64,000 nucleotides of DNA from Aigarchaeota archaeon. Its GTDB lineage: Archaea; Thermoproteota; Nitrososphaeria_A; Caldarchaeales; Wolframiiraptoraceae. The stretch is from positions 18,332 through 82,331 of the forward strand of contig JANXDW010000026.1 of assembly GCA_025058515.1 (NCBI GenBank), given 5' to 3'. Shown here piece after piece: positions 32,073-61,531 of the stretch. Both the position numbers and the translations under genes were made by a program. The first letter of the stretch is position 1, and the number at the start of each line of letters is the position of its first letter. The notes below the pieces were generated by a model. It did no database searches and was not told where the DNA came from. It saw nothing but the letters and a program-made list of their open reading frames with translations.

Positions 32073-32080
32073 ACTCATGA

Positions 32081-32794: not shown

Positions 32795-32795
32795 T

Positions 32796-34433: not shown

Positions 34434-34472
34434 ATTTTTTATCTAGTGATGATAGCTAGTAGATGATAGAAT

Positions 34473-35867: not shown

Positions 35868-35946
35868 ATTATTCTTGTTGCGATTTCTACCTAGGTTAGA
35901 AGATTGTAAGTTTTTAAGATGCTTCTACATCTCATCCATGTAGAAT

Positions 35947-36363
35947 ATGGTGAGGGCTGGAAAGACTTCTATAATAGAGTACTTAAAAGAAAAGGCTAGT
36001 AGCTTAAGAACTGAGACAGCTATAACTATATACTCAATATTCTTAATATTCTTCATCATATTTCTTCTAAGTGGTTTGATTTATTCTCTTACTACTGAGG
36101 AACCTATACCGATAGCTTTTCTACCAACTGGATCGATCAGAGTATTTCTCTGGAGTATTAATGCACAGAGCCATGCAGAGACTATCGTTATAGCTCTATA
36201 CTATTTAATGGGTGGAGGGGGAGTCTTACTGTACGTAAATGCTATTACCAAACTACGTAATCCTAGGACTACCAAGTACATGCTCTTCTTTAGCTTCTTA
36301 CTCATACTACTAGCTGGAATAGGGATCTATTCAGCATATATCTCTAAGTTTACTCCACCTTAG
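35947..36363 (+). CDS. Small polytopic membrane protein, unknown function
   Basis: 138 aa with 3-4 TM helices. Its 3' end overlaps the convergent KaiC/RadB-like gene by 14 nt. Confidence 0.35.
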   Translation: MVRAGKTSIIEYLKEKASSLRTETAITIYSIFLIFFIIFLLSGLIYSLTTEEPIPIAFLPTGSIRVFLWSINAQSHAETIVIALYYLMGGGGVLLYVNAITKLRNPRTTKYMLFFSFLLILLAGIGIYSAYISKFTPP

Positions 36364-39190: not shown

Positions 39191-39201
39191 AACCGTAATC
39201 T

Positions 39202-45672: not shown

Positions 45673-47058
45673 TTATTCTGCGAGTGGTGGTGTGAAGAAT
45701 ATTCCTCCCCACAGTAGCCATACTAGGAATAGGGCGAAGATTACGTTTACTATCTGAGCTATAACATATGCTGCAGCTGGTCTACCTCTACCTATCGCTA
45801 TAAGTTCTTTGAATCTTGTATCTAGTCCGATGCCGACGAAGGCTAGTGGGAAGAAGATGACACTCCTGAATTTATCTACTGGTGTTGCCCAGAACTTTGC
45901 GACAAAGTCAGATTTAGCTTTCGCAAGGCTAACCCCCATGGTTTCTGCTACGTTCACCATGATGATCGAGAGCAGTATGCTAGCAACGATGAATCCTAGA
46001 ATGAACTTGGGGAATCTGTACCATACCTCCATCGGGCTTACTCTTTCTTCAGGTTTCTTCTCTACTCTAAATATCCAGACTACAGCTAGTAGGAATGCCA
46101 CGAAACCTATTAAGACGTTCTGAGCCATTTTAACAATCGCTGCTACATCCATTGCTCTTCCACCTAGGAAACCTCCGGCAGCAACTACAGCTGGCGTAGT
46201 ATCTATTGTTGCCCCAATCCATGCACCTGCGACGTGCATCCAGTATTTACCTATTACAGGTGCGAGAGCTTTTGATAGATATGGTAGACCAACTAGCAAT
46301 GGTATAGATGTAATCAGTACGAGCGATATTGTGTAGCTAACGTACTTGGGATTTCCCTTAACTGCACCTCCAGCTGCGATAGCAGCAGATACACCGCAGA
46401 TAGATACACCGCTTGCCATTATCGATGAGAACTCTCTATCGAGCCCAAATCCTCTACAGATGTAGAATGCTGCATACCATATTACTAATACGTTTATTAT
46501 TGCTTGAACTACGGCCAGTCCACCAGCAACGACTAAGTCTGTGAAGAATATGTTGAGACCTAAGATTACTAGACCGATCTTGATAAAGAGCTCTGTTCTA
46601 ACTGCAGGCTTAAGCCATTTCGGTACACCTACAGTATTGCTGATCAATAATCCTATTACTAGAGCCCATAGTGGATACTCTAGACCCCAAGTCCTCGCAA
46701 ACTCTGTAGCTCCAATTATTATTGCAAGCCATGCAAGTATAAACATCACTATGAACCCTGGAATGTATTGTTTGACAAATCTTTTCTCGATAATGGATAC
46801 AGCTATTAGCGTTAATATCATTGTGTAGATTAGTACTAAGACCCATCCTGTAAAGTGGTCTGCGGATGCCCATGCAGGTGGTGTTGGAAGCCATTTTGTC
46901 TCTGCTTTCAAGTACCATCCTATCCATGGTTGATAGAATGGTTGAGCTTTCCAACCTGTCACTGCAGCAGCTACTAAGCCTATTAGGATTATTATGAAGC
47001 CTACCCAGACAGCCCACCAATCTTCTTTTTTCCATAAACTAGACCAATCTATCGGCAT
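45673..47058 (-). CDS. Polytopic membrane transporter-like protein, family unresolved (possibly YeiH/UPF0324-like)
   Basis: 461 aa with 10 or more TM helices and a Gly/Ala-rich re-entrant-like segment CGVSAAIAAGGAVKG. Confidence 0.3.
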   Translation of the reverse strand: MPIDWSSLWKKEDWWAVWVGFIIILIGLVAAAVTGWKAQPFYQPWIGWYLKAETKWLPTPPAWASADHFTGWVLVLIYTMILTLIAVSIIEKRFVKQYIPGFIVMFILAWLAIIIGATEFARTWGLEYPLWALVIGLLISNTVGVPKWLKPAVRTELFIKIGLVILGLNIFFTDLVVAGGLAVVQAIINVLVIWYAAFYICRGFGLDREFSSIMASGVSICGVSAAIAAGGAVKGNPKYVSYTISLVLITSIPLLVGLPYLSKALAPVIGKYWMHVAGAWIGATIDTTPAVVAAGGFLGGRAMDVAAIVKMAQNVLIGFVAFLLAVVWIFRVEKKPEERVSPMEVWYRFPKFILGFIVASILLSIIMVNVAETMGVSLAKAKSDFVAKFWATPVDKFRSVIFFPLAFVGIGLDTRFKELIAIGRGRPAAAYVIAQIVNVIFALFLVWLLWGGIFFTPPLAE

Positions 47059-47171: not shown

Positions 47172-48233
47172 TTGAAGATTGTGAAGATAATCCAGATCGA
47201 GGTCTCTTCAAGATGTAACGCAGACTGCTTGATGTGTCCTAAATCTAGTTATAAAGATCTATGGAGTTTTGGAGATATGGATCTTGAAGATTATACTAAG
47301 ATAAGTAGTTGTTTCGATGAATGCGATATCGTATGGTTGCAAGGATGGGGGGAGCCATTGCTCTCTAAAAATATTTACGAGATGGTTAGATTGGCTGGGA
47401 GAAGAGATACTACAGTAGGTCTTACAACAAATGCTATGCTATTAAATAGTGAACGATCGAGGAGATTGATAGAGAATGGTGTTAAAGTCTTATCTATATC
47501 GATTGCAGGTGGAACGAGAGAGACTCATGAGAGTATTAGGAGGGGGACCAGCTTTAATAAAATTATTGAGAATGTTAAAGCATTGACACAGTTGAGGAGA
47601 AATGTAAATGCAAGAGATTTAAAGGTGATCTTCACATTCTTGAGAATTAAACAGAATATTGCTGAGCTTCCAAGAGTTGTCGAGCTTGCATCTGAGCTAG
47701 ATGTAGACCAAGTTATCGGAACGAACATAGACTATATACCGACTAAAGAACACTACGATATGAAGATCTTTTCAGAGGGTAAAGCTTCTAAAGAGTATTT
47801 AGAGATAATAAGATCGAGTGAAGAAAGAGCAAGAGAGTTAGGGGTCTCTATCTTCAACTATCCTATAGAGATGGAGGAAGTCATAGTATGCCCTGAAGAC
47901 CCTACTAGAGGATTATTCATCTCTCACGATGGAAGCGTCTCACCATGTGTTTACTTAAATGTACCTTTAAGATCTCATACAATTCCAAGATATTTCAAGA
48001 ATACTCAATACGATGTTCCTAAACTAATTTACGGGAACATAAAGGTAGAGAGGTTAGAAGAGATTTGGAGAAAAAAAGAATATATGGAATTTAGGGATGT
48101 TTATAATGAGAGAGTAAAGTCTTCGAAACCTACTGTGAGCTTCATTCAATCTTTACTTGAAGTTAGAGAGGTACATAGGATTCCCCAGATACCTGAACCG
48201 TGCAGAACTTGTTATAAAGCTTATGGAGTTTAA
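47172..48233 (+). CDS. Radical SAM enzyme with C-terminal Cys-containing (twitch/SPASM-like) extension
   Basis: CNADCLMCPK (Cx3Cx2C), GGEPLL-like WGEPLL, and C-terminal Cys residues (CPEDP...SPCVY...CRTC). A TTG or GTG start. Confidence 0.55.
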   Translation: MKIVKIIQIEVSSRCNADCLMCPKSSYKDLWSFGDMDLEDYTKISSCFDECDIVWLQGWGEPLLSKNIYEMVRLAGRRDTTVGLTTNAMLLNSERSRRLIENGVKVLSISIAGGTRETHESIRRGTSFNKIIENVKALTQLRRNVNARDLKVIFTFLRIKQNIAELPRVVELASELDVDQVIGTNIDYIPTKEHYDMKIFSEGKASKEYLEIIRSSEERARELGVSIFNYPIEMEEVIVCPEDPTRGLFISHDGSVSPCVYLNVPLRSHTIPRYFKNTQYDVPKLIYGNIKVERLEEIWRKKEYMEFRDVYNERVKSSKPTVSFIQSLLEVREVHRIPQIPEPCRTCYKAYGV

Positions 48234-48235
48234 GG

Positions 48236-48424
48236 TTACATCTCGGTAACCGTTATCGCTCCAGATGGGCAGACCGCTTCACATGATCTACATCCTAGAC
48301 ATTGATCTTGATTGACTGGTACAGCTTTACCATTTTGAAGTTCGAAGACGCTCACTGGACATATGGTTACGCATTCCCCATCACCAGTACATTTTTCTTT
48401 ATCTACTGATACTATCCATGTCAT
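48236..48424 (-). CDS. 2x[4Fe-4S] ferredoxin
   Basis: 62 aa with CTGDGECVTICP and CLGCRSCEAVCP. Confidence 0.7.
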   Translation of the reverse strand: MTWIVSVDKEKCTGDGECVTICPVSVFELQNGKAVPVNQDQCLGCRSCEAVCPSGAITVTEM

Positions 48425-48520
48425 GATCAGTTCACCATATTTAGAAAGATACTCTGCAATTTAAGTATGATTTAATTTAAAAAATTTTTGTCGAAGGTGA
48501 AAAGTTGGAGAGAGTGAGAA

Positions 48521-48733
48521 CTATTCGGTTGCCTCTGGAACTTTTACTCTTGTTTCGCCTCCAAAAGATACCCACTCGATCTTTCCCTCATTGACAAGCA
48601 CATTTACCGCTTTATCTACAATCTTCTTATCTAATTTCAATGTTTTAGCTATATCTCTACTCGTAACAGATCTTTTAACCTTCTTCAAGTATTCTAGAAT
48701 CTGCTGTTTAACTTCTTCTGTTACCTCGGACAT
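48521..48733 (-). CDS. dsrD: DsrD-like small winged-helix protein
   Basis: 70 aa, located downstream of dsrAB. Pattern KQQILEYLKK...LVNEGKIEWVSFGGETRV resembles the DsrD LVNDE.LEYWSSGST core. Confidence 0.55.
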   Translation of the reverse strand: MSEVTEEVKQQILEYLKKVKRSVTSRDIAKTLKLDKKIVDKAVNVLVNEGKIEWVSFGGETRVKVPEATE

Positions 48734-48966
48734 CTTACCTCATCTAATATAGATTAATTCTACTTGAAAAGCATTATCCTTACTTAATGAAATATTGATG
48801 GATACAATCATTCTAGCTTTAGCTAGGGCTTTTACCCATCTTTTCAGAACATTTACCTTTAAGGCTTTAAACAAAGACAATTTGATCCTGGATAAAATAT
48901 ATAATAGGGGATTTAAAGTTTGTAGATTTTGTTTCTACTAACTTATCTCTTGACTCTCTCGTTAGT

Positions 48967-50040
48967 CTATCTCCATTTAAATTGTGTAGTAGTTCTAAAT
49001 GTTGGTAGAGAGAAGATGAAATCATCAATATGCTTATCTGTGAAAGGTATCTCTGTTAAGGTGAAGAATCTCTCCCACCCAATCCTCTTTATCCAATCTC
49101 CTATCCTCTCACCCTTCTTAGCGTTCTTAATCCATGCATCTATAACTTTTTTAGCTGCTTGAACACATTCTGGCCATCTAGGAGGATTATTTGGAAGATA
49201 TGGTATTGCAAGTCTAGAGAATTCTGGAGGACCTCCAGCTACAGCGTTCCCTCCAACCCACATAGATAAGCAGTCATATTTTGGATTGTGTATAAACATC
49301 CCTGGGCAGACTGTGTAGCAGTTTCCACAATACATGCACCTCTCCTCATTAACTATTACTGATTTCTTTTCTGGTGCAGGTCTGATAGCTGCTGTAGGAC
49401 AGCTGGCGACAAGAGTAGGTATCTCGCAAAGCCTACTAACTATATCATCATTAACTACTGGAGGCTTTCTATGCATTCCAACAAATGCAAGGTCTGAACA
49501 GTGTACTGCTCCACACATATTTAAGCAGCATGCAATAGCTATCTTTAGTTTACCTGGTAGATCATCTCTAACAAAGTAATCGTATAGTTCATCGTAGAGA
49601 GCCTTGGCAAGTCCTGGAGCATCTATTATGGCCGTATGGCAGTGAACCCATCCTTGAGTATGTATTATAGCTTTCAAGGATCGACCAGTTCCTCCCACAG
49701 GCCAACCTCTCTCTCTTAATTCTCTTAGTAATCCATCCAGTTTATTCTTATCGGTAACTATGAACTCTACATTATGTCTACTCGTAAACTTCACGTATCC
49801 ATCAGAATATTTATCAGCGATATCGCATAGCTCTCTAACGAAGTAGACGCTAACTATCTTTGGTATCGCTGCTCTAACCATGTAGACTTCATCACCATTC
49901 ATAGAGACGTGTTTTATTATACCTGGAGCAACATATTCGTGGTATCTCCATTTACCGTAATTCTTCATTAATACTGGGTGGACCATCTCTCTATAATGCG
50001 GAGGACCAATATCTGTTATGTACTTCTTCTCTCCAGACAT
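48967..50040 (-). CDS. dsrB: Dissimilatory sulfite reductase beta subunit
   Basis: N-terminal TDIGPPHYREMVHPVLMKNYGKWRYHE, siroheme/Fe-S Cys residues, and an inserted ferredoxin domain (CMYCGNCYTVCP). Confidence 0.85.
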   Translation of the reverse strand: MSGEKKYITDIGPPHYREMVHPVLMKNYGKWRYHEYVAPGIIKHVSMNGDEVYMVRAAIPKIVSVYFVRELCDIADKYSDGYVKFTSRHNVEFIVTDKNKLDGLLRELRERGWPVGGTGRSLKAIIHTQGWVHCHTAIIDAPGLAKALYDELYDYFVRDDLPGKLKIAIACCLNMCGAVHCSDLAFVGMHRKPPVVNDDIVSRLCEIPTLVASCPTAAIRPAPEKKSVIVNEERCMYCGNCYTVCPGMFIHNPKYDCLSMWVGGNAVAGGPPEFSRLAIPYLPNNPPRWPECVQAAKKVIDAWIKNAKKGERIGDWIKRIGWERFFTLTEIPFTDKHIDDFIFSLPTFRTTTQFKWR

Positions 50041-50044
50041 CTTC

Positions 50045-51223
50045 TTACTTCACCTCCTCAAGTTCTTCAGGACTCCAGAAGTAGTATGGATTAGCTCTAG
50101 GAGCATAAACCATCTGAGGAGCCGGTGGTTGACCGATAGCTTTCAAGAAATTCCTCATACCAACCCTATATACTAATTCTCCTACCCTCTCTCTAGTTTT
50201 AGCATTCTCATCCCACCAGTCGAGAATCTTTCTAGTCAACTCCTTTAATTCTCTATATGGTTTGTCAGCCTTCATAAATGGTACGATAACCCATCCGAGA
50301 AATGCTCCCTGCAGTATAGTTGCCTTCCCTCCTAAGAGTATTGATACACCTCTATCATCTCCTGGGAGAATGGCCTTGGGTAAAGCTGATAGACATTTCA
50401 TACATCTTGTACAATCTTCTGGTATGACTCTGAGTTCTTTACCATCCCATTCAAGAGCTTGTGGTGGACATCTAGCAGCTACAGCCGCTATATTCACACC
50501 CTTCTTAGCATATTCTCTTACAGCCTCTTGATCTATCTTTATAGAATCTCTCCATGTTCCAATTATTGCTAAATCTGCACGGGCTAGTGCTGCTACACAA
50601 TCGTTAGGACATCCAGCTATCTTAATCTTGAATTTGTATGGGAATCTAGGTCTATGTATCTCATCTTGAAGTTCCATGGTTAACTCATGGTAGATGTCTA
50701 GAGTATCGATACATGACCATTGGCAGAAAGCTGGTCCACCACAACAACTGAGAGTTCTCACATCACCTCCAGAGCCTCCTAGATCGAATCCTATTGAAAT
50801 CAAGTCTTCAAAACAAGGTTGGAGGCTCGCTGTCTGAGCTCCTAGTAAGATTATGTCTCCTGTAGAACCGTGTAGATTTATGAATCCGGAGCCATGCTTC
50901 TCCCATACATCACAAAGCTTTCTTAATGCTTTGGTTGAGTAAAACCACCCAGCGGGCTGTGCTACTCTAAGTGTATGAACTTCAGGGGTTTGCATAACTT
51001 CAGGTGGAAGATCACTATATCTGCCGATTACGCCTCCACCATACCCTCTTACACCAACTATACCTCCATGCTTCCAGTGGGTTACTCTCTCTACATAAGA
51101 TCTCTCCAATTGTAGTAAGATATTCTTCGAGTAAGGTTTTACCGCCGCCATCCGCTTCATCTCTGTTACGAAACTAGGCCATCGACCTTTCTCTAATTCA
51201 TCTAAGAGAGGTGTCTCAGACAT
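50045..51223 (-). CDS. dsrA: Dissimilatory sulfite reductase alpha subunit
   Basis: N-terminal [16 protein letters not shown], nitrite/sulfite reductase Cys residues, and a ferredoxin-like CTRCMKC. Confidence 0.85.
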
Positions 51224-51474
51224 TTTCTACTCGACTACATTTATTTCGTTAGTCGTATATATTCTTTCTTATTGAAAAATTTCTTTCTAATTGAAAAATC
51301 CTTCCATCTAAAGAATAACGTAGTTATAGAAGAAGAGCAATCACATATATAGATTGAAGGTAAAAACCACACCACAAATGTAAATTATCAATCTAGTCCA
51401 TGAATAGTATAATGGGATTTAATATTTTCTCTTCTCTCAGTTTACCTATCTCAAATCATCCATAATCATCTATC

Positions 51475-52869
51475 CTAGTATACTAGTGAGTTGGCTAGTA
51501 TCTCGCTTAACCCTGAAACATTTATGCTAGAGTTGTAGTAGCTAACCGTATCTAGAAACTGTCTTTTACAGTTTGCACATATCGTTACCAAAGTTGAGGC
51601 ACCGGTATTTTTAACCTGCTCCATCTTCAATCTTCCATAAGTCTTCATCCTGAACTCTGGGAAATTGTACTTATTCATTAAAGCAAATCCACCTCCACCT
51701 CCACAACAGTAATTGTACTCTCTATTCGGAAACATCTCTCTAAAATCTTTACATGAAGCAGCTAATACTCTTCGAGGCTCATCATATATCCCACCGCATC
51801 TTCCAATCTTACATGAATCATGAAAAGTAACGGGTGCGGGATTCTTATCTTTATCAAGTCTCAATCTTCCTTCTCTTAAAAACTTATCGTATAATTCTAC
51901 TATATGGATTACCTTGAATGGTCTCTCTTCAGGGGGGATTAAGTCTTTTATCAAGTGTCCGAGAACATCGTAAGAATGTCCACATTCTCCGACGACTACA
52001 TATTCTGGTTTAAGTTTCTTGAAAGTTTCTAAATGAGCTTTAATTACACGTAATAAGTCTTTATCACTATAGAATAGACCGTAGTTTACGTTATCAAATA
52101 CTCCGGTTTTCGGAGAGTTAAATGTCCAATCTTCATTCACGTAATTCATTATCTCAACGATACCTCTTATCGTATCGAGAAAAGATAGATAATCTCCAGC
52201 ATTGTTTATTATTAGATATTTTGCACCAACTTTATCGACTGGAATCTCTACGTTAACATTTTTTCTATTCTCCTCAATCTCACTCTTCACGAAATCTAAT
52301 ATATTGATTAAAGCATCATACGGTATCTTTGGAGCACTGCCAAAATTAATCTGATTCTCCACTCCTTCTTCTTTTAACTCATCTGGAACAATTCCTAACT
52401 CAGCTAATATCTTCCTCGCCTCCCTCATTATCAATCCATTATCTAAACCGAATGGACAAGCCAATACACATCTTCTACAGATTGTACACCTGTAGGCAGC
52501 CTCAGATAATGCATTGATATCTTGTTCAGTGGCTTCTTTAGCACCTACTAGTCTTCCGAATAGTTTCCCACTCCACGTAAAATGTTTCTTGTAAATCTTT
52601 CTTAGAAGGTCGGCTCTGTAGAGTGGACTATAGATCTTTTGTCTTCCACTTCCCACATATACTGGGCAGGCCTCAGCACATGTTCCACAATGAGTACATG
52701 CTTCAAGGCTTAATTTTAATGGTAGGAGGAATGCCCAGTTATTCTCTTTACTCAATATTTCTCTAAATGCTTTGAGGAATCTATCAACCTTAGGTTCTTG
52801 TGGACGGACCTTTGCATCTGAGAGACCTCTATACTCATCAAATAATTTTTCTAAATTCATAGGCTTCAC
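51475..52869 (-). CDS. dsrK: DsrK/HdrD-like Fe-S oxidoreductase (two [4Fe-4S] motifs plus CCG domains)
   Basis: CTHCGTCAEACP, CTICRRCVLACP, and a CCG-type Cys cluster YNYCCGGGGGFAL. Confidence 0.75.
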   Translation of the reverse strand: MKPMNLEKLFDEYRGLSDAKVRPQEPKVDRFLKAFREILSKENNWAFLLPLKLSLEACTHCGTCAEACPVYVGSGRQKIYSPLYRADLLRKIYKKHFTWSGKLFGRLVGAKEATEQDINALSEAAYRCTICRRCVLACPFGLDNGLIMREARKILAELGIVPDELKEEGVENQINFGSAPKIPYDALINILDFVKSEIEENRKNVNVEIPVDKVGAKYLIINNAGDYLSFLDTIRGIVEIMNYVNEDWTFNSPKTGVFDNVNYGLFYSDKDLLRVIKAHLETFKKLKPEYVVVGECGHSYDVLGHLIKDLIPPEERPFKVIHIVELYDKFLREGRLRLDKDKNPAPVTFHDSCKIGRCGGIYDEPRRVLAASCKDFREMFPNREYNYCCGGGGGFALMNKYNFPEFRMKTYGRLKMEQVKNTGASTLVTICANCKRQFLDTVSYYNSSINVSGLSEILANSLVY

Positions 52870-53549
52870 CTCCTAATATGTCTTTGATCAAGAATTATTT
52901 TTTGTCCATAGAATATTGCTATCGGATGTATGAGGGTTTTAAAAGGTAGGTACATCATGTAAACTTGTGCAAATAGTATGTGGATTAAGAATAATGTATC
53001 TGCAGGTGGGAGTACAGGGTTCAAGGTTATAATGCCTTGGATCCAGCTCCATACTTGAATAGAGTCTATCAACTTGAACATCCGAATATATTGTCCTAGA
53101 AGTAATGTGACTATAAGTAATCCTAGAGCTAGATAATCTGAAAAATAGGATTCTGTTTTCTTATCGTAGATCCTTCTTATGAGAAAACCGAAAGAGCCGA
53201 TTGCTGCGAACATTCCTGCCGCACTTCCTATCTCGTATTCGAGAGGAAGATGAGGCATGAAGATATACTTAGCGTGGAGTGAGAGGCTTACGATTAATCC
53301 TATGTGAAACATCCATGCTAGAGTGAATATAAGTTTATCAAATTTTCTTGGACCAGGTAAGGAGAAGATCCTCTTTCCAATAGTGATGAATATGCTTGCG
53401 AGGTTTTTCTTTGCAGGGAATATAGCCCACATCACTGGTCTAGGGAGGAACATGAATTTGAAGAAGTTGTATCCTAATGCGATTCCAAAGGTCGCCATCA
53501 TGATGTAAGGCAAGACTACCCCAATTATAAACAACGTAAAATCATACAT
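52866..53549 (-). CDS. dsrM: DsrM/HdrE/NarI-like membrane b-type cytochrome subunit
   Basis: 227 aa with 5 TM helices and conserved His in helices. Its stop overlaps the dsrK start. Confidence 0.55.
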   Translation of the reverse strand: MYDFTLFIIGVVLPYIMMATFGIALGYNFFKFMFLPRPVMWAIFPAKKNLASIFITIGKRIFSLPGPRKFDKLIFTLAWMFHIGLIVSLSLHAKYIFMPHLPLEYEIGSAAGMFAAIGSFGFLIRRIYDKKTESYFSDYLALGLLIVTLLLGQYIRMFKLIDSIQVWSWIQGIITLNPVLPPADTLFLIHILFAQVYMMYLPFKTLIHPIAIFYGQKIILDQRHIRR

Positions 53550-53776
53550 CTAGAGATCACCCTTATACTTAAATCTGCAATATGCAAATCTAGTTGACAC
53601 TTTTATTAAGCTTTTATCTTTTCTAAGCATAGTTCATATGGAGGATAAAGAGTCACATATTTAAATTTATGTTTATTACAATGGTTATTGTAATGTGTTA
53701 GACCGCAGATCTCCAGCATTCAGAATGATTATTATCTATCTAAAGAATAGCAATTCATGAATCGTGATCATCATTA

Positions 53777-54511
53777 TTATTCCAACCATCTCAACTTCTC
53801 CCTTAATGTTACTACTTCTCCTAGAATTATGACAGCTGGAGGTTTAACTTGATATCTCTGAGAAATCTCTACAATATTCTGTAAGTCTCCAGTTAGTACT
53901 CTTTGTTCTCTTAAAGTTGCATTCTCTACTATAGCGATAGGAGTAGTTGGAGGAAGACTTGAAGATGCTATTTTTACGATCTTCTCTAGGTTAGAGACGC
54001 CCATTAATATTATCGTAGTATCAACTGATGAGAATATCTTCTTTAAGTAATCTAATTCATCTACGCATCCCTCCTTTCTATGCCCCGTGACAATAGCTAT
54101 AGAAGATGAATATTCTCTATGGGTTACCGGTATCCCGGCATAGGTTGGACCAGCTAACGCTGAAGAGATACCGGGAATTATCTCGTAGGATATACCTGCT
54201 TCTTTAAGTACTTCACATTCCTCTCCACCTCTACCAAATAACATTGGATCACCATTCTTCAACCTTACAACATTATCGTATTTTCTAGCCTTCTCGACTA
54301 ATAGTTTATTTATCTCTTCCTGCTTCCAACTTTCACCTACTTCTTTCCCAACACAGATAAACTCTTTAGCATTAACAGCATATTCTAATATCTTCTCATT
54401 GACTAATCTATCATATATCACGACATCAGACTTCTGTAAGATCTTTAATCCTTTAAGTGTTATCAACTCAGGGTCTCCTGGACCTGCACCAACTAGATAG
54501 ACTTTACCCAA
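53777..54511 (-). CDS. cobA: Uroporphyrinogen-III C-methyltransferase (SUMT)
   Basis: VYLVGAGPGDPELITLKG and a tetrapyrrole methylase fold. 244 aa. Confidence 0.85.
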   Translation of the reverse strand: MGKVYLVGAGPGDPELITLKGLKILQKSDVVIYDRLVNEKILEYAVNAKEFICVGKEVGESWKQEEINKLLVEKARKYDNVVRLKNGDPMLFGRGGEECEVLKEAGISYEIIPGISSALAGPTYAGIPVTHREYSSSIAIVTGHRKEGCVDELDYLKKIFSSVDTTIILMGVSNLEKIVKIASSSLPPTTPIAIVENATLREQRVLTGDLQNIVEISQRYQVKPPAVIILGEVVTLREKLRWLE

Positions 54512-54703
54512 TGATTCTCTCCTCTATACTATGGTTTTAATTCATCTATATTAATAGTCTTAGTTCTTCTCCTCTCTTGATAAGAGAAGTCTATACGATT
54601 AGATTGAAGAATGTGAGGAAAACTAATGTCTACTTACTTATTCTCTACTTCAACATTTTATAAAATTATTGTTCATCTAAGAGTTTAAGCTGAATCTTTT
54701 TAA

Positions 54704-55417
54704 ATGTTTTGTTCAAGCTACTATTGTGGAAGTAGGATGAGGATGCCATTCTTTATTGAGATGTCCCAGAAGAAGATACTGATAATTGGTGGAGGATATA
54801 AGGGGTTGAAAAGAGTTGAAAAGTATCTTAAGACAGGCGCAGAGATAATAGTATATAGTAAAAGTTTTGATGAGAAATTGACTGAGTTAGCAGATGGAAA
54901 TCAAGTAAAATTGGTGAAAGGGGATGTTGAAGATTATGAGAGATTAGAAGAGTTGATAGAAGAATCTGATATCGTTATGGTTGCGCTTGAGAAAAAAGAT
55001 TACAATGAAAAGATTAAGAAGATTACTAAAAAGTATCGTAGACTTCTCAACTTAGCTAATGATGCAGAAGAGACAGATCTAGTAGTACCTATTGACTCCA
55101 CCGTAGGTCCATTAAGGATAGCTATTACAACTGAAGGGAAGAGTAGTATAATTGCAAGAGAAGCTTTGCACAAGATAGTAAAATTATTAGAAGAAGATAT
55201 AGAGTTGAGAGAATTTACAGAGTTAATGTACTCTGTAAAGAAAATAGTTAAAAAGACTCATTTTGATTCTAAGAAGAAGTTAGAGATATATTACAAAATT
55301 TATAACAATAGTTTATTGAGAGAAGCTATCAAGATTGGAGATTATGGAAAAGCTAGAGAGATTGTTTTCAATATATTAAGAGAAGAAGGTTTAAGAGTTG
55401 AAGAAGGCGAATTATGA
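54704..55417 (+). CDS. sirC: Precorrin-2 dehydrogenase / sirohydrochlorin ferrochelatase (SirC/Met8-like Rossmann domain)
   Basis: KKILIIGGGYKGLKRVEKYLKTGAEIIVYS. The true start is probably the internal Met near 54737-54743. Confidence 0.65.
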   Translation: MFCSSYYCGSRMRMPFFIEMSQKKILIIGGGYKGLKRVEKYLKTGAEIIVYSKSFDEKLTELADGNQVKLVKGDVEDYERLEELIEESDIVMVALEKKDYNEKIKKITKKYRRLLNLANDAEETDLVVPIDSTVGPLRIAITTEGKSSIIAREALHKIVKLLEEDIELREFTELMYSVKKIVKKTHFDSKKKLEIYYKIYNNSLLREAIKIGDYGKAREIVFNILREEGLRVEEGEL

Positions 55418-56787
55418 TGAAAGCTAAGAGAATAATCATCTCTAGCGTAAGCGGGAAAACTGGTAAAACAATAATAACTACAGCCATAGTAAAGAAACTT
55501 GTAGAACTTGGATATAGAGTACAGTCATTTAAGATCGGGCCAGATTTTATCGACCCTTCATATCATAACTTATTCTCAAGTAGACCTTCACGTAATCTAG
55601 ATTCTATCATGATGAAGAAAGATGTTCTCTTATCTTCTTTTACACGTGCAATGAGAGATGCGGATATCGGTGTAATTGAAGGAGTTTTTGGATTATATGA
55701 TAGTATTGATGGAGTATCAGAAGAAGGTAGCACAGCTCAAGTCTCCAAGATCCTTAAAGCCCCAGTCATCTTAATTATTAATGCAGAGAGAATTAATCGA
55801 GGAGTATTAGCTTTGATAAAGGGTTTTAGAGAATTTGACGAAGAAGTTCTTCTCAAAGGTATCATTATAAACAATATTGGAAGTGAGAACCAGAAGAGAA
55901 AGTTGCTTAAAACAATCTATGAGAATTTTAAAGATTTGGAGATTGTTGGAGCTGTCTTTAGAAGCGACCTCGTAGAAGAGAAGATGATATACAGACATCT
56001 TGGTTTAATACCGGTTGTTGAAAGATCTCGAGAGATAAGTGAGATAAGAGAAGCTGTAAATCAAGTGGCTGAACAGATAGATATAGAGAAGATAATTAGT
56101 CTAGCATCTGAAGTTGATGAACTTCCAGAGCCTACCGAAGATATGACAAGCTATCACTTTAAGACGAAGGTAGGCATTTTGAAAGATAGTATATTCTCAT
56201 TCTACTATCCTGAAAATCTAGAATACCTTCAAAAATTTGCAGATAGAACATATTACATAAATTCAATGGTGGATGAGGCTCTTCCAGATATAGATCTACT
56301 ATATATTGGCGGTGGGTTTCCAGAAGTTTATGCAAGTTTACTTGAGAAGAATAATCCATTAAAGAATGAGATAAGGAGAAAGGTTGAGAAAGGATTAAAG
56401 ATATATGCTGAATGTGGTGGGTTAATGTATCTTTCTAATAAGATCAAGACATTGAATGGAGAAGAGTATGATATGATAGGATTAATTGATGGAATCACGG
56501 AGATGAGTAAGAGACCTGTAGGACATGGGTATGTTTATCTTAAAGCATTAAGAGATAACCCGTTAATAGGAGTTAATGAGTATCTCGTTGGACATGAATT
56601 TCACTATTCTCGATTGATCTTAAGAGAGAAAGTGGATTTTGCTTTCAAAGTTGAGAGAGGATATGGTATCGATGGAGTTCATGATGGATTACTTAAAGAA
56701 AACATCTTAACAATGTACACTCATTTACATGTTCTACATAATAAAAACATGTTCCTAAAGATACTTAAGTGGGCTGAGAGAGATTAA
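55414..56787 (+). CDS. dsrN: CbiA/CobB-family amidotransferase, DsrN-like (putative siroheme amidase)
   Basis: N-terminal P-loop SGKTGKT and FKIGPDFIDPSYH, plus a C-terminal glutamine amidotransferase Cys (AECGGLMYL). It lies beside siroheme and dsr genes. Confidence 0.7.
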   Translation: MMKAKRIIISSVSGKTGKTIITTAIVKKLVELGYRVQSFKIGPDFIDPSYHNLFSSRPSRNLDSIMMKKDVLLSSFTRAMRDADIGVIEGVFGLYDSIDGVSEEGSTAQVSKILKAPVILIINAERINRGVLALIKGFREFDEEVLLKGIIINNIGSENQKRKLLKTIYENFKDLEIVGAVFRSDLVEEKMIYRHLGLIPVVERSREISEIREAVNQVAEQIDIEKIISLASEVDELPEPTEDMTSYHFKTKVGILKDSIFSFYYPENLEYLQKFADRTYYINSMVDEALPDIDLLYIGGGFPEVYASLLEKNNPLKNEIRRKVEKGLKIYAECGGLMYLSNKIKTLNGEEYDMIGLIDGITEMSKRPVGHGYVYLKALRDNPLIGVNEYLVGHEFHYSRLILREKVDFAFKVERGYGIDGVHDGLLKENILTMYTHLHVLHNKNMFLKILKWAERD

Positions 56788-57602
56788 TAGTAACCAATGT
56801 TTTTAAGGAATTCTAAGATCTCTTTATTCACTATTTCTGGAACCTCTAAGAGGAAATAGTGTCCATATCCTTCAAGTATTATCAACTTCGAGTTCGGTAT
56901 CATCTCCTTAGCTCTCCTAACGTAGTCTAATGGTACTCGATCATCTTTATCACCAGCCATTATAAGAGTAGGAACTTTTATTTCTCTCAACTTTTTCGAT
57001 GCATCATATTTACTAAGAGTCTTGACTAAATTCAAGTACTCTCTCCTTCTATTCTCAGTTAAGTCTTTTATGGCCCATTCTTTAACTTCTTGTGGAGTAT
57101 TTGGATGGAATGTTTTTTCTATCTCTCTTCTTACAAGGTCTTCATATCTAGAAGACTCGAATCCTTCAAAATCTGCAAAATCCATAAACATCGTTAACAT
57201 CTCTCTCCAAACTCTTAGATAGGCTTCCATAAGCATCTTAGGTCTCTTGAATAATCTGCTGGCTAACATTATGAGAGCTTTTACCTTCTCTGGATGCATA
57301 AAATAATACTGGGTAGCTATCATGCCTCCCATAGACCATCCAGCGAGAGCTACTTCTTCTATGTTTAGATGTTTGAGAAGAAGATCTAAGTCTTCTGCAA
57401 GTTTTTCAACTGTAGTAGGTTTCTCTAACTTAACAGATTTTCCATGTCCTCTAACATCTAAAGCTATTACTTTATAATATTTAGAGAATTCAGGGATCTG
57501 CATCCTCCACCATTCATGGGAAGCCCAAGCTCCATGGATTAAGATTAACGCTCTACCTTCTCCAAATACTTCATAATAGATCTCATTGTTTATATACGGC
57601 AT
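56784..57602 (-). CDS. Alpha/beta-fold hydrolase
   Basis: Nucleophile elbow GWSMGG and HGAWASHEWW (HG oxyanion). 272 aa. Confidence 0.65.
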   Translation of the reverse strand: MPYINNEIYYEVFGEGRALILIHGAWASHEWWRMQIPEFSKYYKVIALDVRGHGKSVKLEKPTTVEKLAEDLDLLLKHLNIEEVALAGWSMGGMIATQYYFMHPEKVKALIMLASRLFKRPKMLMEAYLRVWREMLTMFMDFADFEGFESSRYEDLVRREIEKTFHPNTPQEVKEWAIKDLTENRRREYLNLVKTLSKYDASKKLREIKVPTLIMAGDKDDRVPLDYVRRAKEMIPNSKLIILEGYGHYFLLEVPEIVNKEILEFLKNIGYY

Positions 57603-57907: not shown

Positions 57908-58228
57908 ATGCCCTATGTAGATTTTAAAGGTCAGAAACTCGAAGTTGATGAAGATGGTTTTCTACAAGAACCTGAGAAGTGGAGCCCAGAGGTGGCAGAA
58001 TTCTTTGCTAAACACTTTGAAAATGTTGAAAAACTCACTGATGATCATTGGAAAGTGATAAACTATCTAAGAGAGTATTGGCAGAAATATGGGGTAGCAC
58101 CTCCTATAAGGATGCTTCTTAAACAGACTGGATTCACTCTCCAGAAGATCTATGAACTATTCCCCTCCGGACCTGCTAAAGGTGCATGTAAAGTCGCTGG
58201 ACTACCGAAGCCGACAGGCTGCGTTTAA
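57908..58228 (+). CDS. dsrC: DsrC (TusE/DsrC family) with both conserved C-terminal cysteines
   Basis: 106 aa. The C-terminus is ACKVAGLPKPTGCV (Cys-x10-Cys, penultimate Cys). Confidence 0.8.
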   Translation: MPYVDFKGQKLEVDEDGFLQEPEKWSPEVAEFFAKHFENVEKLTDDHWKVINYLREYWQKYGVAPPIRMLLKQTGFTLQKIYELFPSGPAKGACKVAGLPKPTGCV

Positions 58229-58273: not shown

Positions 58274-58978
58274 GTGATCGGGTTGAGCCATGAGTCTAAA
58301 GGCGAAGATAAAGTATCTAAAGAAAGAAGAACTACTTTAAAATTTATTACATCTCTATCTTTTGTAATGGGTTTAGGTAGTGTAGCTTCTCTTCTTAAAT
58401 CTGTTACTCCTCCTGTTTTAGAGATTCCCGAATGGCCTAGGATTAAGATCGCAAATATAAATAATATTAAACCTTTAACATGGTATCTCTTCACATATCC
58501 TACTAGTGAGATACCATGTATATTGGTAAAAACAGGGAAGAGCACTCCCTACGGTATCGGCCCCGATAAAGATATAGTTGCTTATGTTATGATATGTCAG
58601 CATGCAAGATATTATGGGACGATTTATATTCCTCCAAGGGAGAAAAGGGATCCAGCAAAGTTAACGTACTTAAAGACTGTGCCTCCAAATGTTTTAGAGC
58701 TATATCCAGATAAAAACCTACTATACTGTCCAGCACATGCTGCTATATACGATCTTGAAGATGGTGGGAGTGTCTTAAGCGGACCACCATTCTGTAGTCT
58801 ATGTAAAGTAGTTCTCGAATATGATGATACAACTAGAGATATATATGTAGTTGGTTTAGCTCCTCCAGCCCCTGCTGTACCTGGAGTTACATTATGTTCT
58901 AAAGATGCTGAAGAATTGAAGAGGATCATGTTGGGGAAGAAACTCTTATCTGAAGTTACTTTAGAAGAGAAGATATAG
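58274..58978 (+). CDS. Rieske-type [2Fe-2S] protein, atypical (no disulfide cysteines, long inter-box spacer), twin-arginine-like N-terminus
   Basis: Box I CQH and Box II CPAH, about 43 residues apart. N-terminus KERRTTLKF plus a hydrophobic stretch. It lies directly upstream of cytochrome b. Confidence 0.5.
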   Translation: MIGLSHESKGEDKVSKERRTTLKFITSLSFVMGLGSVASLLKSVTPPVLEIPEWPRIKIANINNIKPLTWYLFTYPTSEIPCILVKTGKSTPYGIGPDKDIVAYVMICQHARYYGTIYIPPREKRDPAKLTYLKTVPPNVLELYPDKNLLYCPAHAAIYDLEDGGSVLSGPPFCSLCKVVLEYDDTTRDIYVVGLAPPAPAVPGVTLCSKDAEELKRIMLGKKLLSEVTLEEKI

Positions 58979-58989
58979 GAGGATGAAGT

Positions 58990-60468
58990 ATGAGTAAGAG
59001 TTTTTTAAAGAAGTTTGTAGACTGGCTAGATGAAAACTTTGGATTTACCAGGACCATACTACGCCCTGCTCCTGAGTATTCTCTTCGAAATCCATCTTAC
59101 TGGCTTGGAGCTATAGCCGTGGTAGCTTTCTTCACAGCTGGAGCCGCAGGCATAATCTTATTACAATATTATGATCCACATCCTGATAATGCATGGGAGT
59201 CTGTGAGTAGAATCATGATCGAGGTCCCCTTTGGAAACCTCATAAGAAACATCCACATATACTCAGCCTTCTCAATGATCTTCATCGCCTTTTTACATTT
59301 TATGAGAAATTATTTTACTCTAGCTTATAGGAGACCTAGAGAGTTGATGTGGATAGTCGGGATGCTTATGGGTTTAGCTACTTTAATGATGGGGTTCACG
59401 GGATATCTTCTCCCATGGTATGCTCTCTCCTACGCAGCTGTAGGATTCGGGATAACGATAATAAAACAGTTACCACAACCTATAAGCGGTTTCCTAGAAT
59501 ACCTTATATCAGGATATGGAACAGACATGGAATTACTTAGACGGTTCTATACATTCCACACAGTCCTACTACCAGCATTAATAATAATCTTATTAGCAAT
59601 TAAGTTACATATTTTTGAAGTCCACGGTATAACTGAACCTCTAAGAAGAGATCTTCCAGAAGAAGAGAGGAAGCTCGTACCTTGGTTCCCGAACGTATTC
59701 CTATACTTTGTAATCATTGTTACTACATTTATTACAATAATATTGACTGCATCAATAATATATCCATTTGGACTACATGAGAAATATACTCCAGGCGTAG
59801 TTACGATACCGATGCCTGAATGGTATTTTATGTGGACTTACGCTATCGCTAAGACAGAGTTTATCGAAGCTTTTGGAGAGACAGGCTTCAAGCTATTCGT
59901 AGCAACTTTAACAATAATAACACTGATCTTCATATTCTTACCATTCTTAGATAGGTGGAAAGATAAACATCCTTCAGAGAGACCATTCTTCATCGCTATA
60001 GGAGTATGGATGATAGTTGAGCTAGTTCTAATGACATATCTTGCATGGATAACTGCAGGCACATACATTCCATCAGAAATCGCTATCCTCAGCATAACTA
60101 TTCCAGCAATCATCATCTTCTTAGCAGCATATGTATACTCGAGAAAGATTGTAAAACCACCTGAGCTAGTCTGGGAGAAATTCAGCAAGCTTAAAGTATC
60201 AAGATTCAGCGAGGGCTCGATTAATTCAAAGAGATATGTTTGGAATATTGTAAGATTTATGATAAGTATTATGTGTGCAGGGTTATCGTTTAGGATAATA
60301 TATGGATGGCTTACAGAGGGGATCGGTTCTGCATGGATGATCTTCGGTCTAGTTCTCCTCTCCATCTCCACCCTCGAATCTCTTAGAATAATTTACATCG
60401 CAGACCTATCCTCTCAAAATATTAAGAATAGGTCAAGATCGTTAGAGAGGTGGTGGGGAATTGGTTGA
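58990..60468 (+). CDS. Cytochrome b (bc-complex type) with C-terminal extension
   Basis: Helix B His pair H-x13-H (NIHIYSAFSMIFIAFLHF), PRELMWIVGMLMG, and GYLLPW. 492 aa. Confidence 0.7.
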   Translation: MSKSFLKKFVDWLDENFGFTRTILRPAPEYSLRNPSYWLGAIAVVAFFTAGAAGIILLQYYDPHPDNAWESVSRIMIEVPFGNLIRNIHIYSAFSMIFIAFLHFMRNYFTLAYRRPRELMWIVGMLMGLATLMMGFTGYLLPWYALSYAAVGFGITIIKQLPQPISGFLEYLISGYGTDMELLRRFYTFHTVLLPALIIILLAIKLHIFEVHGITEPLRRDLPEEERKLVPWFPNVFLYFVIIVTTFITIILTASIIYPFGLHEKYTPGVVTIPMPEWYFMWTYAIAKTEFIEAFGETGFKLFVATLTIITLIFIFLPFLDRWKDKHPSERPFFIAIGVWMIVELVLMTYLAWITAGTYIPSEIAILSITIPAIIIFLAAYVYSRKIVKPPELVWEKFSKLKVSRFSEGSINSKRYVWNIVRFMISIMCAGLSFRIIYGWLTEGIGSAWMIFGLVLLSISTLESLRIIYIADLSSQNIKNRSRSLERWWGIG

Positions 60469-60721
60469 GAGAACATACATAGTTCTCTTAGTACTTTTAA
60501 TTGTTCAAGCAATCTTAACAGGGCTCGTCTGGATGGTGAACCCTATACTAGTTACCCATCAAGTAGCTGCAGCAGGATATATCGCCTCAAGTTTACTCAT
60601 TCTTGCGATGATCGTTTATGTTTATTACCGCGGTGATGATTATGATCAAGAATGGATAGCTGCGGGAGTAGGGATGATCGTCCTAATCCTCTTGTTAACA
60701 TATATAAAGGGAGGTTTCTAG
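60461..60721 (+). CDS. Small two-helix membrane protein
   Basis: 86 aa with two hydrophobic helices. It overlaps the cytochrome b stop and abuts the next gene. Confidence 0.3.
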   Translation: MVERTYIVLLVLLIVQAILTGLVWMVNPILVTHQVAAAGYIASSLLILAMIVYVYYRGDDYDQEWIAAGVGMIVLILLLTYIKGGF

Positions 60722-61531
60722 ATGGATGTCCTGTTATTCATCATAGGTTCTATAACTCCGTACATAGCTTTCTTCGTACTAATACTAGGGTTGATCTATA
60801 GAGTAGCTCGATGGCTATCTATACCTGTACCAATTAGATTTCCAGTAGCTCCTGCACCAATAACATATACAGGAGTTCTGAAGAGGATGTCTATAGATCT
60901 CTTCGCATTCGGTAGCTTGATAAAAGGGAATAAGAAGCTTTGGCTAGGAGGATATGCTTTCCACATAGCGCTCGCTGTAACATTAATATCTCATATAATA
61001 AATGTCTACTTCCACAATTTATGGGAAGTCATAGGATATGGATGGTATGAGGCAGTACTATACTCAGGGTTCTTCTTCCTCGCTGCACTCTCTTTCCTAC
61101 TTGTAAGAAGGATAGTTCTACCGAATGTAAGATATATCTCAAAAATTAGTGATTACTTGATCTTGATCCTACTTTTCGCAATAGTCTTCTTAGGAGTCTA
61201 TATGAGAAGCTTTGGATTAGTAGATGTATCATCTGTTAGCAATTATATGTACAGCCTATTGACGTTTAACCCGATACCTCCACCAAGTAACATATGGTTC
61301 CTCACCCATTATGTCCTTGCTCAAATATTATTCATCTACGTCCCCTTCAGCAAAGTATCTCATCTAATAGGCTGGATGCTCTCGACCACGAGGAATATGA
61401 GAAATATCACTAGGTGGAGGAGGCATGTAAACCCATGGGACTACCCTGTAGAAGTACTCACATGGGAAGAATATTATGAGAAATTCAAAGATGAGTTAGA
61501 GTCCATCGGTCCAGGAGGTGAGAGAAGATGA
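60722..61531 (+). CDS. HdrE/DsrM/NarI-like membrane b-cytochrome subunit (paralog of 52866-53549)
   Basis: 269 aa. Its N-terminal topology is similar to the DsrM-like protein and it has conserved His in TM helices. It overlaps the next gene by 4 nt. Confidence 0.5.
   Translation: MDVLLFIIGSITPYIAFFVLILGLIYRVARWLSIPVPIRFPVAPAPITYTGVLKRMSIDLFAFGSLIKGNKKLWLGGYAFHIALAVTLISHIINVYFHNLWEVIGYGWYEAVLYSGFFFLAALSFLLVRRIVLPNVRYISKISDYLILILLFAIVFLGVYMRSFGLVDVSSVSNYMYSLLTFNPIPPPSNIWFLTHYVLAQILFIYVPFSKVSHLIGWMLSTTRNMRNITRWRRHVNPWDYPVEVLTWEEYYEKFKDELESIGPGGERR

Follow-up and report, generated by a model that had tools for sequence, protein, structure and literature searches.

Reductive bacterial-type dsr genes have been reported in Aigarchaeota/Caldarchaeales since 2013–2015, and a potential for dissimilatory sulfite reduction has been ascribed to the lineage in several studies (PMC4351914, PMC6053391, PMC10547907, PMC10504309). 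Müller et al. described a lineage with reductive bacterial-type DsrAB and concluded that Aigarchaeota and Archaeoglobus gained bacterial dsrAB in independent events (PMC4351914), and Hua et al. 2018 placed JZ bin_15 likewise in the reductive bacterial type (PMC6053391). In Diao et al. 2023 the family is named Wolframiiraptoraceae, and the transfer could not be reproduced (PMC10591310); Neukirchen et al. 2023 found Aigarchaeota and Korarchaeota to be basal in the bacterial reductive type (PMC10504309). Sulfite reduction with a reductive, bacterial-type enzyme has been reported for the Caldarchaeales lineage (PMC4351914, PMC6053391, PMC10591310), and the Caldarchaeales papers, as far as they were covered, do not describe DsrD, two DsrM–DsrK (MK) pairs or Rieske/cytochrome b genes. 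Here we analyze a 64-kb stretch of contig JANXDW010000026.1 (called the window throughout), whose dsr gene cluster is that of a Caldarchaeales ('Aigarchaeota', Wolframiiraptoraceae-like) archaeon. The locus is a further member of the published group of archaeal sulfite-reduction loci, and the cluster probably serves dissimilatory sulfite reduction in this hot-spring archaeon.

The dsr cluster spans about 45.7–63.0 kb of the window (Table 1), beyond the 47172–57602 that an earlier note on this DNA had delimited. The open reading frame (ORF) map places all genes of the dsr set at the coordinates given, and the genes listed in that note lie where it put them, in the minus-strand order SUMT-dsrM-dsrK-dsrA-dsrB-dsrD-ferredoxin. 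The canonical identity of its dsrMK did not hold, as this pair is an Hdr-like paralogue with a CxxC motif, and DsrC and the canonical DsrMK fall just outside its interval. The plus-strand sirC and CbiA-family genes do diverge from SUMT, and the radical S-adenosylmethionine (rSAM) gene converges with the ferredoxin gene, with a stop-to-stop gap of 2 nt. An AT-rich archaeal genome was rightly supposed: the GC content is 0.34–0.40 around the dsr locus and 0.37 for the whole window, which also holds archaeal genes (NucS, archaeal-type SAM synthetase, RIO kinase, ATP-dependent DNA ligase and MptE). The siroheme genes and the DsrN-type amidase gene are attached to the dsr genes, and this attachment is kept in relatives; the cluster is self-contained for sulfite reduction only. 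The locus is a conserved gene cluster and not a mobile island: the window has no integrase gene, no tRNA gene and no composition break. Rfam gave no match within 44–64 kb of the window. Including 10 kb past the end of the window, about 74 kb of DNA was inspected in total, and comparison loci are labeled by L-numbers (e.g., L091, L101). GenBank holds a protein with 100% identity to DsrA from 'MAG: Aigarchaeota archaeon' (JAOAKF010000003.1, 143.8 kb, GCA_026413845.1), of which the window would be about 61.4–125.4 kb in reverse complement, and four other Caldarchaeales metagenome-assembled genomes (MAGs) carry the same cluster in shared gene order, with DsrA 88–92% and DsrB 90–92% identical.

Table 1. 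Features of the dsr cluster, with positions in the window
Feature	Position	Strand	Support
PF03601/YeiH-family membrane protein, putative sulfur-oxyanion transporter	45673..47058	-	TIGR00698 77 bits, PF03601
radical SAM/SPASM protein, uncharacterised subfamily, recurrent dsr neighbour	47172..48233	+	PF04055 + PF13186
62-aa 2x[4Fe-4S] ferredoxin, candidate DsrAB electron donor	48236..48424	-	Fer4 families
DsrD, 70 aa	48521..48733	-	hhalign, position after dsrB, HMM, winged-helix model
DsrB, dissimilatory sulfite reductase beta subunit	48967..50040	-	TIGR02066 489 bits (cut-off 341)
DsrA, dissimilatory sulfite reductase alpha subunit	50045..51223	-	TIGR02064 528 bits (cut-off 393)
promoter-like block AAAGAATATATAC (51255-51267) overlapping 19-bp tandem duplication (51262-51299)	51255..51299	-	
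K1, DsrK-like Hdr-type paralogue (CCG/Fe-S)	51475..52869	-	NCBIfam DsrK 299 bits, below cut-off 400
M1, DsrM-like NarI-family dihaem cytochrome b paralogue	52866..53549	-	PF02665; DsrM model 30 bits
SUMT/CobA/SirA, uroporphyrinogen-III C-methyltransferase	53777..54511	-	NF004790 303 bits (cut-off 198); TIGR01469 292 bits
SirC / CysG-N-like precorrin-2 dehydrogenase	54704..55417	+	TIGR01470 72 bits (cut-off 62), PF13241
DsrN-type siroheme a,c-diamide synthase, CbiA/CobB family	55414..56787	+	TIGR00379 489 bits; synteny
alpha/beta-hydrolase	56784..57602	-	Caldarchaeales-specific position between dsrN and dsrC
DsrC, sulfur-carrier substrate of DsrAB and DsrK	57908..58228	+	TIGR03342 128.6 bits (cut-off 53.5)
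divergent Rieske-type [2Fe-2S] protein, twin-arginine N-terminus	58274..58978	+	ligands C108, H110, C152, H155
cytochrome b (492 aa) of Rieske/cytochrome b complex, PEWY Qo motif at aa 276	58990..60468	+	SoxC 177 bits, b6 144 bits; PF00033/PF13631
86-aa two-helix membrane protein, Rieske/cytochrome b partner	60461..60721	+	synteny; no family match
DsrM (M2), canonical lineage, DsrM-1-like open quinol site	60722..61531	+	NCBIfam DsrM 166 bits
DsrK, canonical, catalytic subunit reducing DsrC trisulfide	61528..62994	+	NCBIfam DsrK 600 bits (cut-off 400)

DsrAB belongs by sequence to the reductive bacterial-type lineage. Both subunits passed the NCBI equivalog models (DsrA, 528.3 bits versus a cut-off of 392.85; DsrB, 488.7 versus 341.5), and the AsrC-type sulfite_red_C model gave them only 37–41 bits; DsrAB is of the dissimilatory and not of the asr or assimilatory type. 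The closest solved structure is DsrAB of Archaeoglobus fulgidus (3mm5_A, E = 4e-161; 3mm5_B, E = 3e-139). Aligned to the A. fulgidus enzyme, DsrA keeps C161-x5-C167...C205-x3-C209 together with the sulfite-binding residues R86, R156, K197, K199 and K201, and DsrB keeps Cys134/171/172/176 and the ferredoxin-domain CxxCxxCxxxC at 235–245. The identity of DsrA is 62–68% to reductive enzymes of Bacillota, Chloroflexota, Dehalococcoidia and Syntrophia, 53–58% to those of Desulfobacterota, Nitrospirota and an Archaeoglobus MAG, 43–46% to enzymes in an oxidative context (dsrABEFHC-MK-L) and 29–34% to archaeal-type enzymes of Thermoproteales and Thermoplasmatota. The bacterial reductive references were named loci from a profile scan of genome contigs with a DsrA alignment, in which 80 loci, bacterial and Archaeoglobus, were among the matches listed and Caldarchaeales genomes were not. 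Cluster representatives at 50% identity supplied the other references (Thermocladium, Pyrobaculum, Thermoprotei, Thermoplasmatota and Desulfobaccales), and two representatives were set as oxidative type by their dsrABEFHC-MK-L context. In paralogue-rooted neighbor-joining trees, the window DsrA falls within, or basal in, the reductive bacterial-type group and forms a clade with other metagenomic sequences at a bootstrap of 97/100. The phylogenetic placement proposed as a check in the earlier note thus returns a reductive, bacterial-type lineage and neither the oxidative nor the Thermoproteales archaeal type. No oxidative rdsrA was found in a scan of viral contigs.

The 70-aa ORF is DsrD, as the earlier note had proposed. 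Profile–profile comparison with positional DsrDs gave an hhalign probability of 98.85% (E = 4e-17), and there are 24 orthologues in Caldarchaeales, almost all of 70 aa and most with PF08679. The hidden Markov model (HMM) of the orthologues matched the small ORF right after dsrB in dozens of bacterial and Archaeoglobus loci among the 80 listed, with E-values of 1e-23 in Chloroflexota and 8e-11 in Archaeoglobus and weak matches in Desulfobacterota. An AlphaFold2 model is a winged helix (predicted local distance difference test score, pLDDT, 86) with a template modeling score of 0.72–0.76 to the DsrD structure 1wq2; the fold search ranks 1wq2 fourth among many winged helices and is not discriminating alone. 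Sequence and profile searches of the PDB with the 70-aa protein matched Z-alpha domains and did not retrieve 1UCR or 1WQ2, and the protein has EWVSFGGET where Desulfobacterota DsrD has YWSSGSTT. On Pfam PF08679 it scores 23.3 bits versus a gathering threshold of 24.2, and one orthologue passes at 24.7; because this model also misses the positional DsrDs of Desulfotomaculum, Desulfobacterales and Syntrophomonadaceae, its threshold is too narrow to refute DsrD. DsrD is an allosteric activator of DsrAB and is missing from archaea with early-diverging DsrAB (PMC8794893), and its presence here fits the bacterial-type DsrAB. DsrD is not uniform within the DsrA clade, because none was detectable after dsrB in Korarchaeal and AT-rich relatives (L101–L104, L091 and L106), where a CGGC-domain or hem gene stands instead. 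Ferredoxin copies 84–92% identical follow dsrD in relatives, and homologues adjoin dsrAB in L108 and many loci of bacteria; two electrons probably pass from the small ferredoxin directly to DsrAB.

The canonical DsrMK is the pair distal to dsrAB, and the pair beside dsrAB (M1K1) is an Hdr-like paralogue. The distal DsrK reaches 600 bits on the NCBIfam DsrK model (cut-off 400) and 600–665 bits to bacterial DsrK, and it has two CxxCxxCxxxC motifs, a CCG domain and the DsrK-specific C454-A-V-D457, whereas K1 stays below the cut-off at 299 bits and carries an Hdr-like C431-A-N-C434. In the A. fulgidus DsrMKJOP structures, the Asp of CxxD binds the non-cubane cluster, as a ligand specific to DsrK (bioRxiv 10.64898/2026.08.25.746951). 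The canonical DsrMK is placed outside 47172–57602 because only the distal pair has both CxxD and the high DsrK score; CxxC is also found in Chloroflexota and Pyrobaculum K proteins. In both M proteins, four haem-ligand His residues align with H56, H66, H187 and H205 of NarI. M2 scores 166 bits and M1 30 bits on the DsrM model, whose cut-off of 300 was built on JOP-type DsrM, and M2 gives 130–155 bits to bacterial DsrM. Two Arg residues in an R-H-x-R motif are the criterion for a blocked quinol site in DsrM (bioRxiv 10.64898/2026.08.25.746951); where JOP-type DsrM has this motif, M2 has S90-H91-I-I93, an open, NarI-like site. The M1 and K1 genes overlap by 4 nt, and K1 orthologues adjoin dsrAB in relatives and in L092, L105 and L108. 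Two MK pairs are also present in L091, L092, L105, L108 and Pyrobaculum, and Desulfotomaculum ruminis has two dsrMK copies (PMC3569383). DsrC, the partner of both DsrAB and DsrK, keeps its two C-terminal cysteines, C94-x10-C105-V, in ...GACKVAGLPKPTGCV. No dsrJOP genes occur in the window or in the 10 kb past its end.

Between dsrC and the canonical dsrMK lie genes for a Rieske-type protein, a cytochrome b and an 86-aa membrane protein, and the tight gaps from dsrC through dsrK (45, 11, −8, 0 and −4 nt) imply one operon. The Rieske ligands C108, H110, C152 and H155 are invariant in orthologues, and an RR motif stands at the N-terminus. The window protein scores 14.7 bits versus a Pfam gathering threshold of 20.3, with orthologues passing at 30–33 bits, and in part matches the NCBIfam models of SoxL2 and the small subunit of arsenite oxidase. 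The Rieske proteins of Caldarchaeales lack the disulfide cysteines, which have been lost, contain an insertion and fall below the Pfam threshold; the single-sequence AlphaFold2 model is unusable (pLDDT 42). The PEWY Qo motif and the family matches of the cytochrome b are those of a Rieske/cytochrome b complex. Orthologues of the 86-aa protein follow cytochrome b in 15 of the 17 loci L093–L109 and also in L091; L099 and L100 end before its position, and L109 has no match. A scan of Joint Genome Institute (JGI) metagenomes with a Rieske alignment returned 80 loci. In all of the 17 closest (31–77% identity), dsrC directly precedes and cytochrome b follows the Rieske gene; in most, the series goes on via the gene for the small membrane protein to dsrMK, and in several as far as dsrAB; upstream of the module stand sirC-dsrN in 11 and dsrN alone in 5. 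The 63 more distant Rieske/cytochrome b loci, including contigs of 9–16 kb, have no dsr gene, and no Rieske/cytochrome b genes occur among the 80 listed bacterial dsrA loci. The dsr-linked loci form four groups, namely Caldarchaeales, Korarchaeia ('Methanodesulfokora'), an AT-rich hot-spring lineage (33% GC) and a 51%-GC lineage from other metagenomes, and DsrA of these groups makes up the 97/100 clade. In the Korarchaeia locus L101, dsrN is 100% identical to that of 'Ca. Methanodesulfokora washburnensis'.

The Hdr-like MK pair and the Rieske/cytochrome b complex are conserved parts of the cluster. Tentatively, a dedicated Rieske/cytochrome b complex with the 86-aa subunit could be an integral, co-transcribed part of the Dsr machinery in the four-group clade and, with the rSAM/SPASM and PF03601 genes, constitute an undescribed Dsr architecture, a proposal that we regard as possible and still doubtful. 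Judged by gene order, this conserved insertion together with rSAM and PF03601 is the only potentially new element of the locus, and most of it falls outside 47172–57602. The complex might act as an alternative to DsrJOP, with outer-face menaquinol oxidation coupled to DsrC-trisulfide reduction, or it might instead render the pathway reversible. The idea that it is needed because the quinol site of DsrM is blocked was not supported, as the window DsrM is without both blocking Arg residues. Full-text literature searches, which covered the Korarchaeota dsr literature in part, found no paper linking Rieske/cytochrome b with archaeal dsr genes, and an earlier description is possible.

From the gene identities, catalytic motifs, phylogenetic type and gene-order conservation we infer activity, direction and electron donors, as well as transport and maturase roles for flanking genes. 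SUMT and SirC would take uroporphyrinogen III towards siroheme, which DsrN would amidate. DsrAB, activated by DsrD, would then reduce sulfite together with DsrC to a DsrC trisulfide, the small ferredoxin giving it the two direct electrons. The canonical DsrMK would oxidize menaquinol at the open NarI-like site of DsrM and pass four electrons to DsrK, which would reduce the DsrC trisulfide to sulfide, with energy conserved by a redox loop. On the minus strand at 37988–40131, an AhbD/NirJ2-like rSAM/SPASM gene (274 bits, below cut-off) adjoins a gene for a MenA-type 1,4-dihydroxy-2-naphthoate prenyltransferase. The two genes suggest a siroheme-dependent route to haem b, and MenA in the window indicates that the quinone is menaquinone.

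Several points weigh against sulfite reduction as the function of the cluster. The basis is wholly genomic, and the DsrA trees are neighbor-joining trees of one subunit with a small reference set. The sirohydrochlorin ferrochelatase step is without an assigned gene, no CbiX/SirB-type chelatase being present in the window, though SirC may be bifunctional. Electrons from a Rieske/cytochrome b complex normally go to an acceptor of higher potential, and a scheme of plain sulfite reduction leaves this unexplained. With about 74 kb inspected, sat, apr and qmo may sit elsewhere in the genome. Moreover, sulfur disproportionators and degraders of organosulfonates have DsrD too (PMC8794893), so more than one source of the substrate is conceivable. 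Since reductive-type DsrAB is shared with these organisms as well (PMC8794893), the same enzymes, instead of respiring sulfite from outside the cell, could serve another reductive or disproportionating sulfur metabolism, i.e., disproportionation of thiosulfate or sulfur, or reduction of sulfite set free from organosulfonates. Genes resembling TauE- and PF03601-type sulfite/sulfate exporters flank the dsr loci of relatives, and a gene with a sulfite-oxidase-family molybdenum domain lies 6 kb past the window end, both in line with such a metabolism. However, the window has no thiosulfate reductase, sulfonate lyase or sulfur-transferase genes, and published work infers sulfite reduction for the lineage; we therefore judge this alternative unlikely.

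The CbiA-family gene is accepted as DsrN on context, in agreement with its earlier description as dsrN-like. The adjoining SUMT and SirC-like genes score above model cut-offs (NCBI annotates a shorter, 226-aa SirC product), and sirC and dsrN overlap by 4 nt. The protein has CbiA and GATase_3 domains, and the model libraries used hold no DsrN-specific model. In the bacterial loci among the 80 listed, it always matches best the ORF that follows dsrD, as in the dsrABDN arrangement. The named close homologues come from Caldarchaeales, 'Ca. Methanodesulfokora', Archaeoglobus, Hydrothermarchaeales, Pyrobaculum and Thermoproteus, all of them dsr-bearing archaea and none a methanogen. In Pyrobaculum neutrophilum the homologue stands between the MK pair and SUMT, and in an Archaeoglobus MAG it abuts dsrC. 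The gene could instead encode an ordinary cobyrinate a,c-diamide synthase of cobalamin synthesis, or CfbB, that merely lies beside dsr; the protein scores 398 bits on the NCBIfam CobB equivalog, above the cut-off of 254, and GenBank annotates it accordingly. Such an identity is quite improbable, given that the window holds no other cobalamin genes, that the gene is translationally coupled to sirC, and that synteny links it to dsrC in 17 metagenome loci and to dsrD in bacterial ones. The restriction of its named close homologues to dsr-bearing archaea, with the Pyrobaculum and Archaeoglobus copies beside MK/SUMT and dsrC, argues in the same direction, and on the CfbB model the protein scores 450 bits, below the cut-off of 560.

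The organism could instead reduce sulfate by the complete pathway, if sat, aprAB and a Qmo/Hdr module are encoded elsewhere in its genome. The limited length of DNA inspected (about 74 kb) leaves room for these genes, and Caldarchaeales are listed among the archaea encoding sulfate-reduction pathways in thermoalkaline springs (PMC11094006). Nevertheless, the check for dsrJOP, sat, aprAB and qmo that the earlier note recommended returned none of them in the window or the 10 kb past its end, and archaea of this DsrK/DsrN grade generally have dsrABCMKN only, without Qmo (PMC10504309), which makes sulfate reduction very unlikely. An oxidative Dsr, turning sulfur or sulfide into sulfite and sending electrons from DsrC and DsrMK through the quinone pool and Rieske/cytochrome b to a terminal acceptor, is hardly credible: the dsrC-Rieske-cytochrome b-dsrMK operon matches the electron path of sulfur oxidizers and many Aigarchaeota carry sqr (PMC6053391), but DsrA sits in the reductive type (43–46% identity to oxidative-context enzymes), DsrD is present, dsrEFH and dsrL were found neither in the window nor in the 10 kb past its end, and no terminal oxidase or cytochrome c gene lies in the window.

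Besides the genes of the proposed sulfite-reduction pathway, the rSAM and PF03601 genes are adjacent in every Caldarchaeales dsr locus. The best NCBIfam match of the rSAM protein is W_rSAM_matur ('tungsten cofactor maturase') at 179 bits, below the cut-off of 380, and homologues at dsr-linked loci of Pyrobaculum, Korarchaeia and Dehalococcoidia have the same score profile. Its identification as the haem synthase AhbD was rejected, as the AhbD model gives 74 bits and a separate AhbD-like gene (274 bits) is present at 37988–39190. Dehalococcoidia, Chloroflexota and Syntrophia loci have homologous rSAM-PF03601 pairs no more than 10 kb from dsrA, the rSAM gene stands directly before dsrC in Korarchaeia, and the Pyrobaculum homologue (33% identity) is beside MK-dsrN-SUMT. 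PF03601 homologues occur within 10 kb of dsrA in 15 of the 80 listed bacterial loci and also in L091, L106 and L107. Loci in which rSAM/PF03601 genes were seen beside dsr genes are L060, L030, L041, L004, L022, L023, L027, L101–L104 and L173. In taurine degradation, proteins of PF03601 (TauZ) are taken to export sulfate (PMC5320631), and sulfite/sulfate transport is a reasonable guess for the window protein. TauE/SafE-type sulfite exporter-like genes are found in or beside the dsr cluster of some relatives (L084, 5871–6656; L091, 19449–20234) and not in the window. An alpha/beta-hydrolase gene on the opposite strand separates dsrN from dsrC in the Caldarchaeales-type loci L087 and L093–L099 and not in other lineages.

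Four Caldarchaeales loci share an unchanged block AAAGAATATATAC about 32–44 nt ahead of the dsrA start, while the surrounding intergenic DNA has diverged, which suggests a separate dsrABD promoter. Next to the block, a 19-bp unit, ATTTTTCAAT[T/A]AGAAAGAA, is tandemly duplicated in the window. This block before dsrA aside, counts of TATA-like hexamers in the AT-rich intergenic DNA were uninformative. Farther from the cluster, the stretch of highest GC content in the window (0.44 versus about 0.37 overall) contains a P-type cation ATPase gene (41926–44652, minus strand), and at 29905–36363 on the plus strand a MoxR-type AAA ATPase gene is followed by five consecutive ORFs (401, 237, 545, 464 and 138 aa) without a Pfam match at E 1e-6. 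About 6 kb past the window end lie genes for a 192-aa sulfite-oxidase-family molybdopterin-domain protein (PF00174; L175, 16359–16937) and a NosD-like beta-helix protein.

The locus represents a clean 'minimal plus' archaeal Dsr set, comprising DsrABC, DsrD, DsrN, siroheme genes, DsrMK without JOP and a second, Hdr-like MK pair, and it stands where the border between archaeal and bacterial Dsr evolution is disputed. The 2026 DsrMKJOP structures raise the question of how organisms with DsrMK only link the oxidation of quinol to the reduction of trisulfide and to energy conservation. The Rieske/cytochrome b genes between dsrC and dsrMK, kept in at least four lineages, would matter if they are functional, in which case the module bears on this question.

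Compared with known systems, the archaeal-type Dsr of Thermoproteales (Pyrobaculum, Thermocladium) and Thermoplasmatota shares the minimal DsrABCMK+N logic with the window, with DsrN 45% identical, and P. neutrophilum has the rSAM/SPASM homologue (33%) and two MK-like pairs beside dsrN-SUMT. In contrast to the window, its DsrA is distant (29–34% identity), both Pyrobaculum K proteins have CxxC, and early-diverging archaeal Dsr systems are without DsrD (PMC8794893). Bacillota of the Desulfotomaculum type, which are sulfate reducers, resemble the window in a DsrA 60–68% identical, a ferredoxin gene near dsrAB, dsrMK without JOP beside dsrC and a second dsrMK copy (PMC3569383), whereas the two aligned DsrM proteins of Syntrophomonadaceae (Bacillota) have R-H-x-R and about 330 aa, unlike the window DsrM. 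Archaeoglobus fulgidus is, like the window organism, an archaeon with bacterial-type DsrAB and DsrD, a CxxD motif in DsrK and DsrN beside DsrC. It differs in having DsrJOP, a DsrM with a blocked quinol site, sat, apr and qmo, while the window has no JOP, an open-type DsrM and Rieske/cytochrome b in the operon. 'Ca. Methanodesulfokora/Methanodesulfokores washburnensis' (Korarchaeia), whose genome also carries mcr (PMC12787533), falls in the same DsrA clade (97/100) and shares the core order dsrN ... rSAM-dsrC-Rieske-cytochrome b-small transmembrane protein-dsrM-dsrK-dsrA-dsrB. Unlike the window, it has one MK pair and no DsrD detected beside dsrB, and its Rieske protein keeps the canonical disulfide cysteines and passes Pfam. 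The other Caldarchaeales loci (single-amplified genome JGI 0000106-J15, JZ bin_15 and Wolframiiraptoraceae MAGs) are less AT-rich than the window genome (37% GC), and some of these relatives have hemL-hemC-SUMT-hemD or TauE upstream in place of sirC-dsrN. All share the order M1K1-dsrABD-ferredoxin // rSAM-PF03601 with the window, and GCA_039630055 shares SUMT, sirC-dsrN, the hydrolase, dsrC and the Rieske gene as well.

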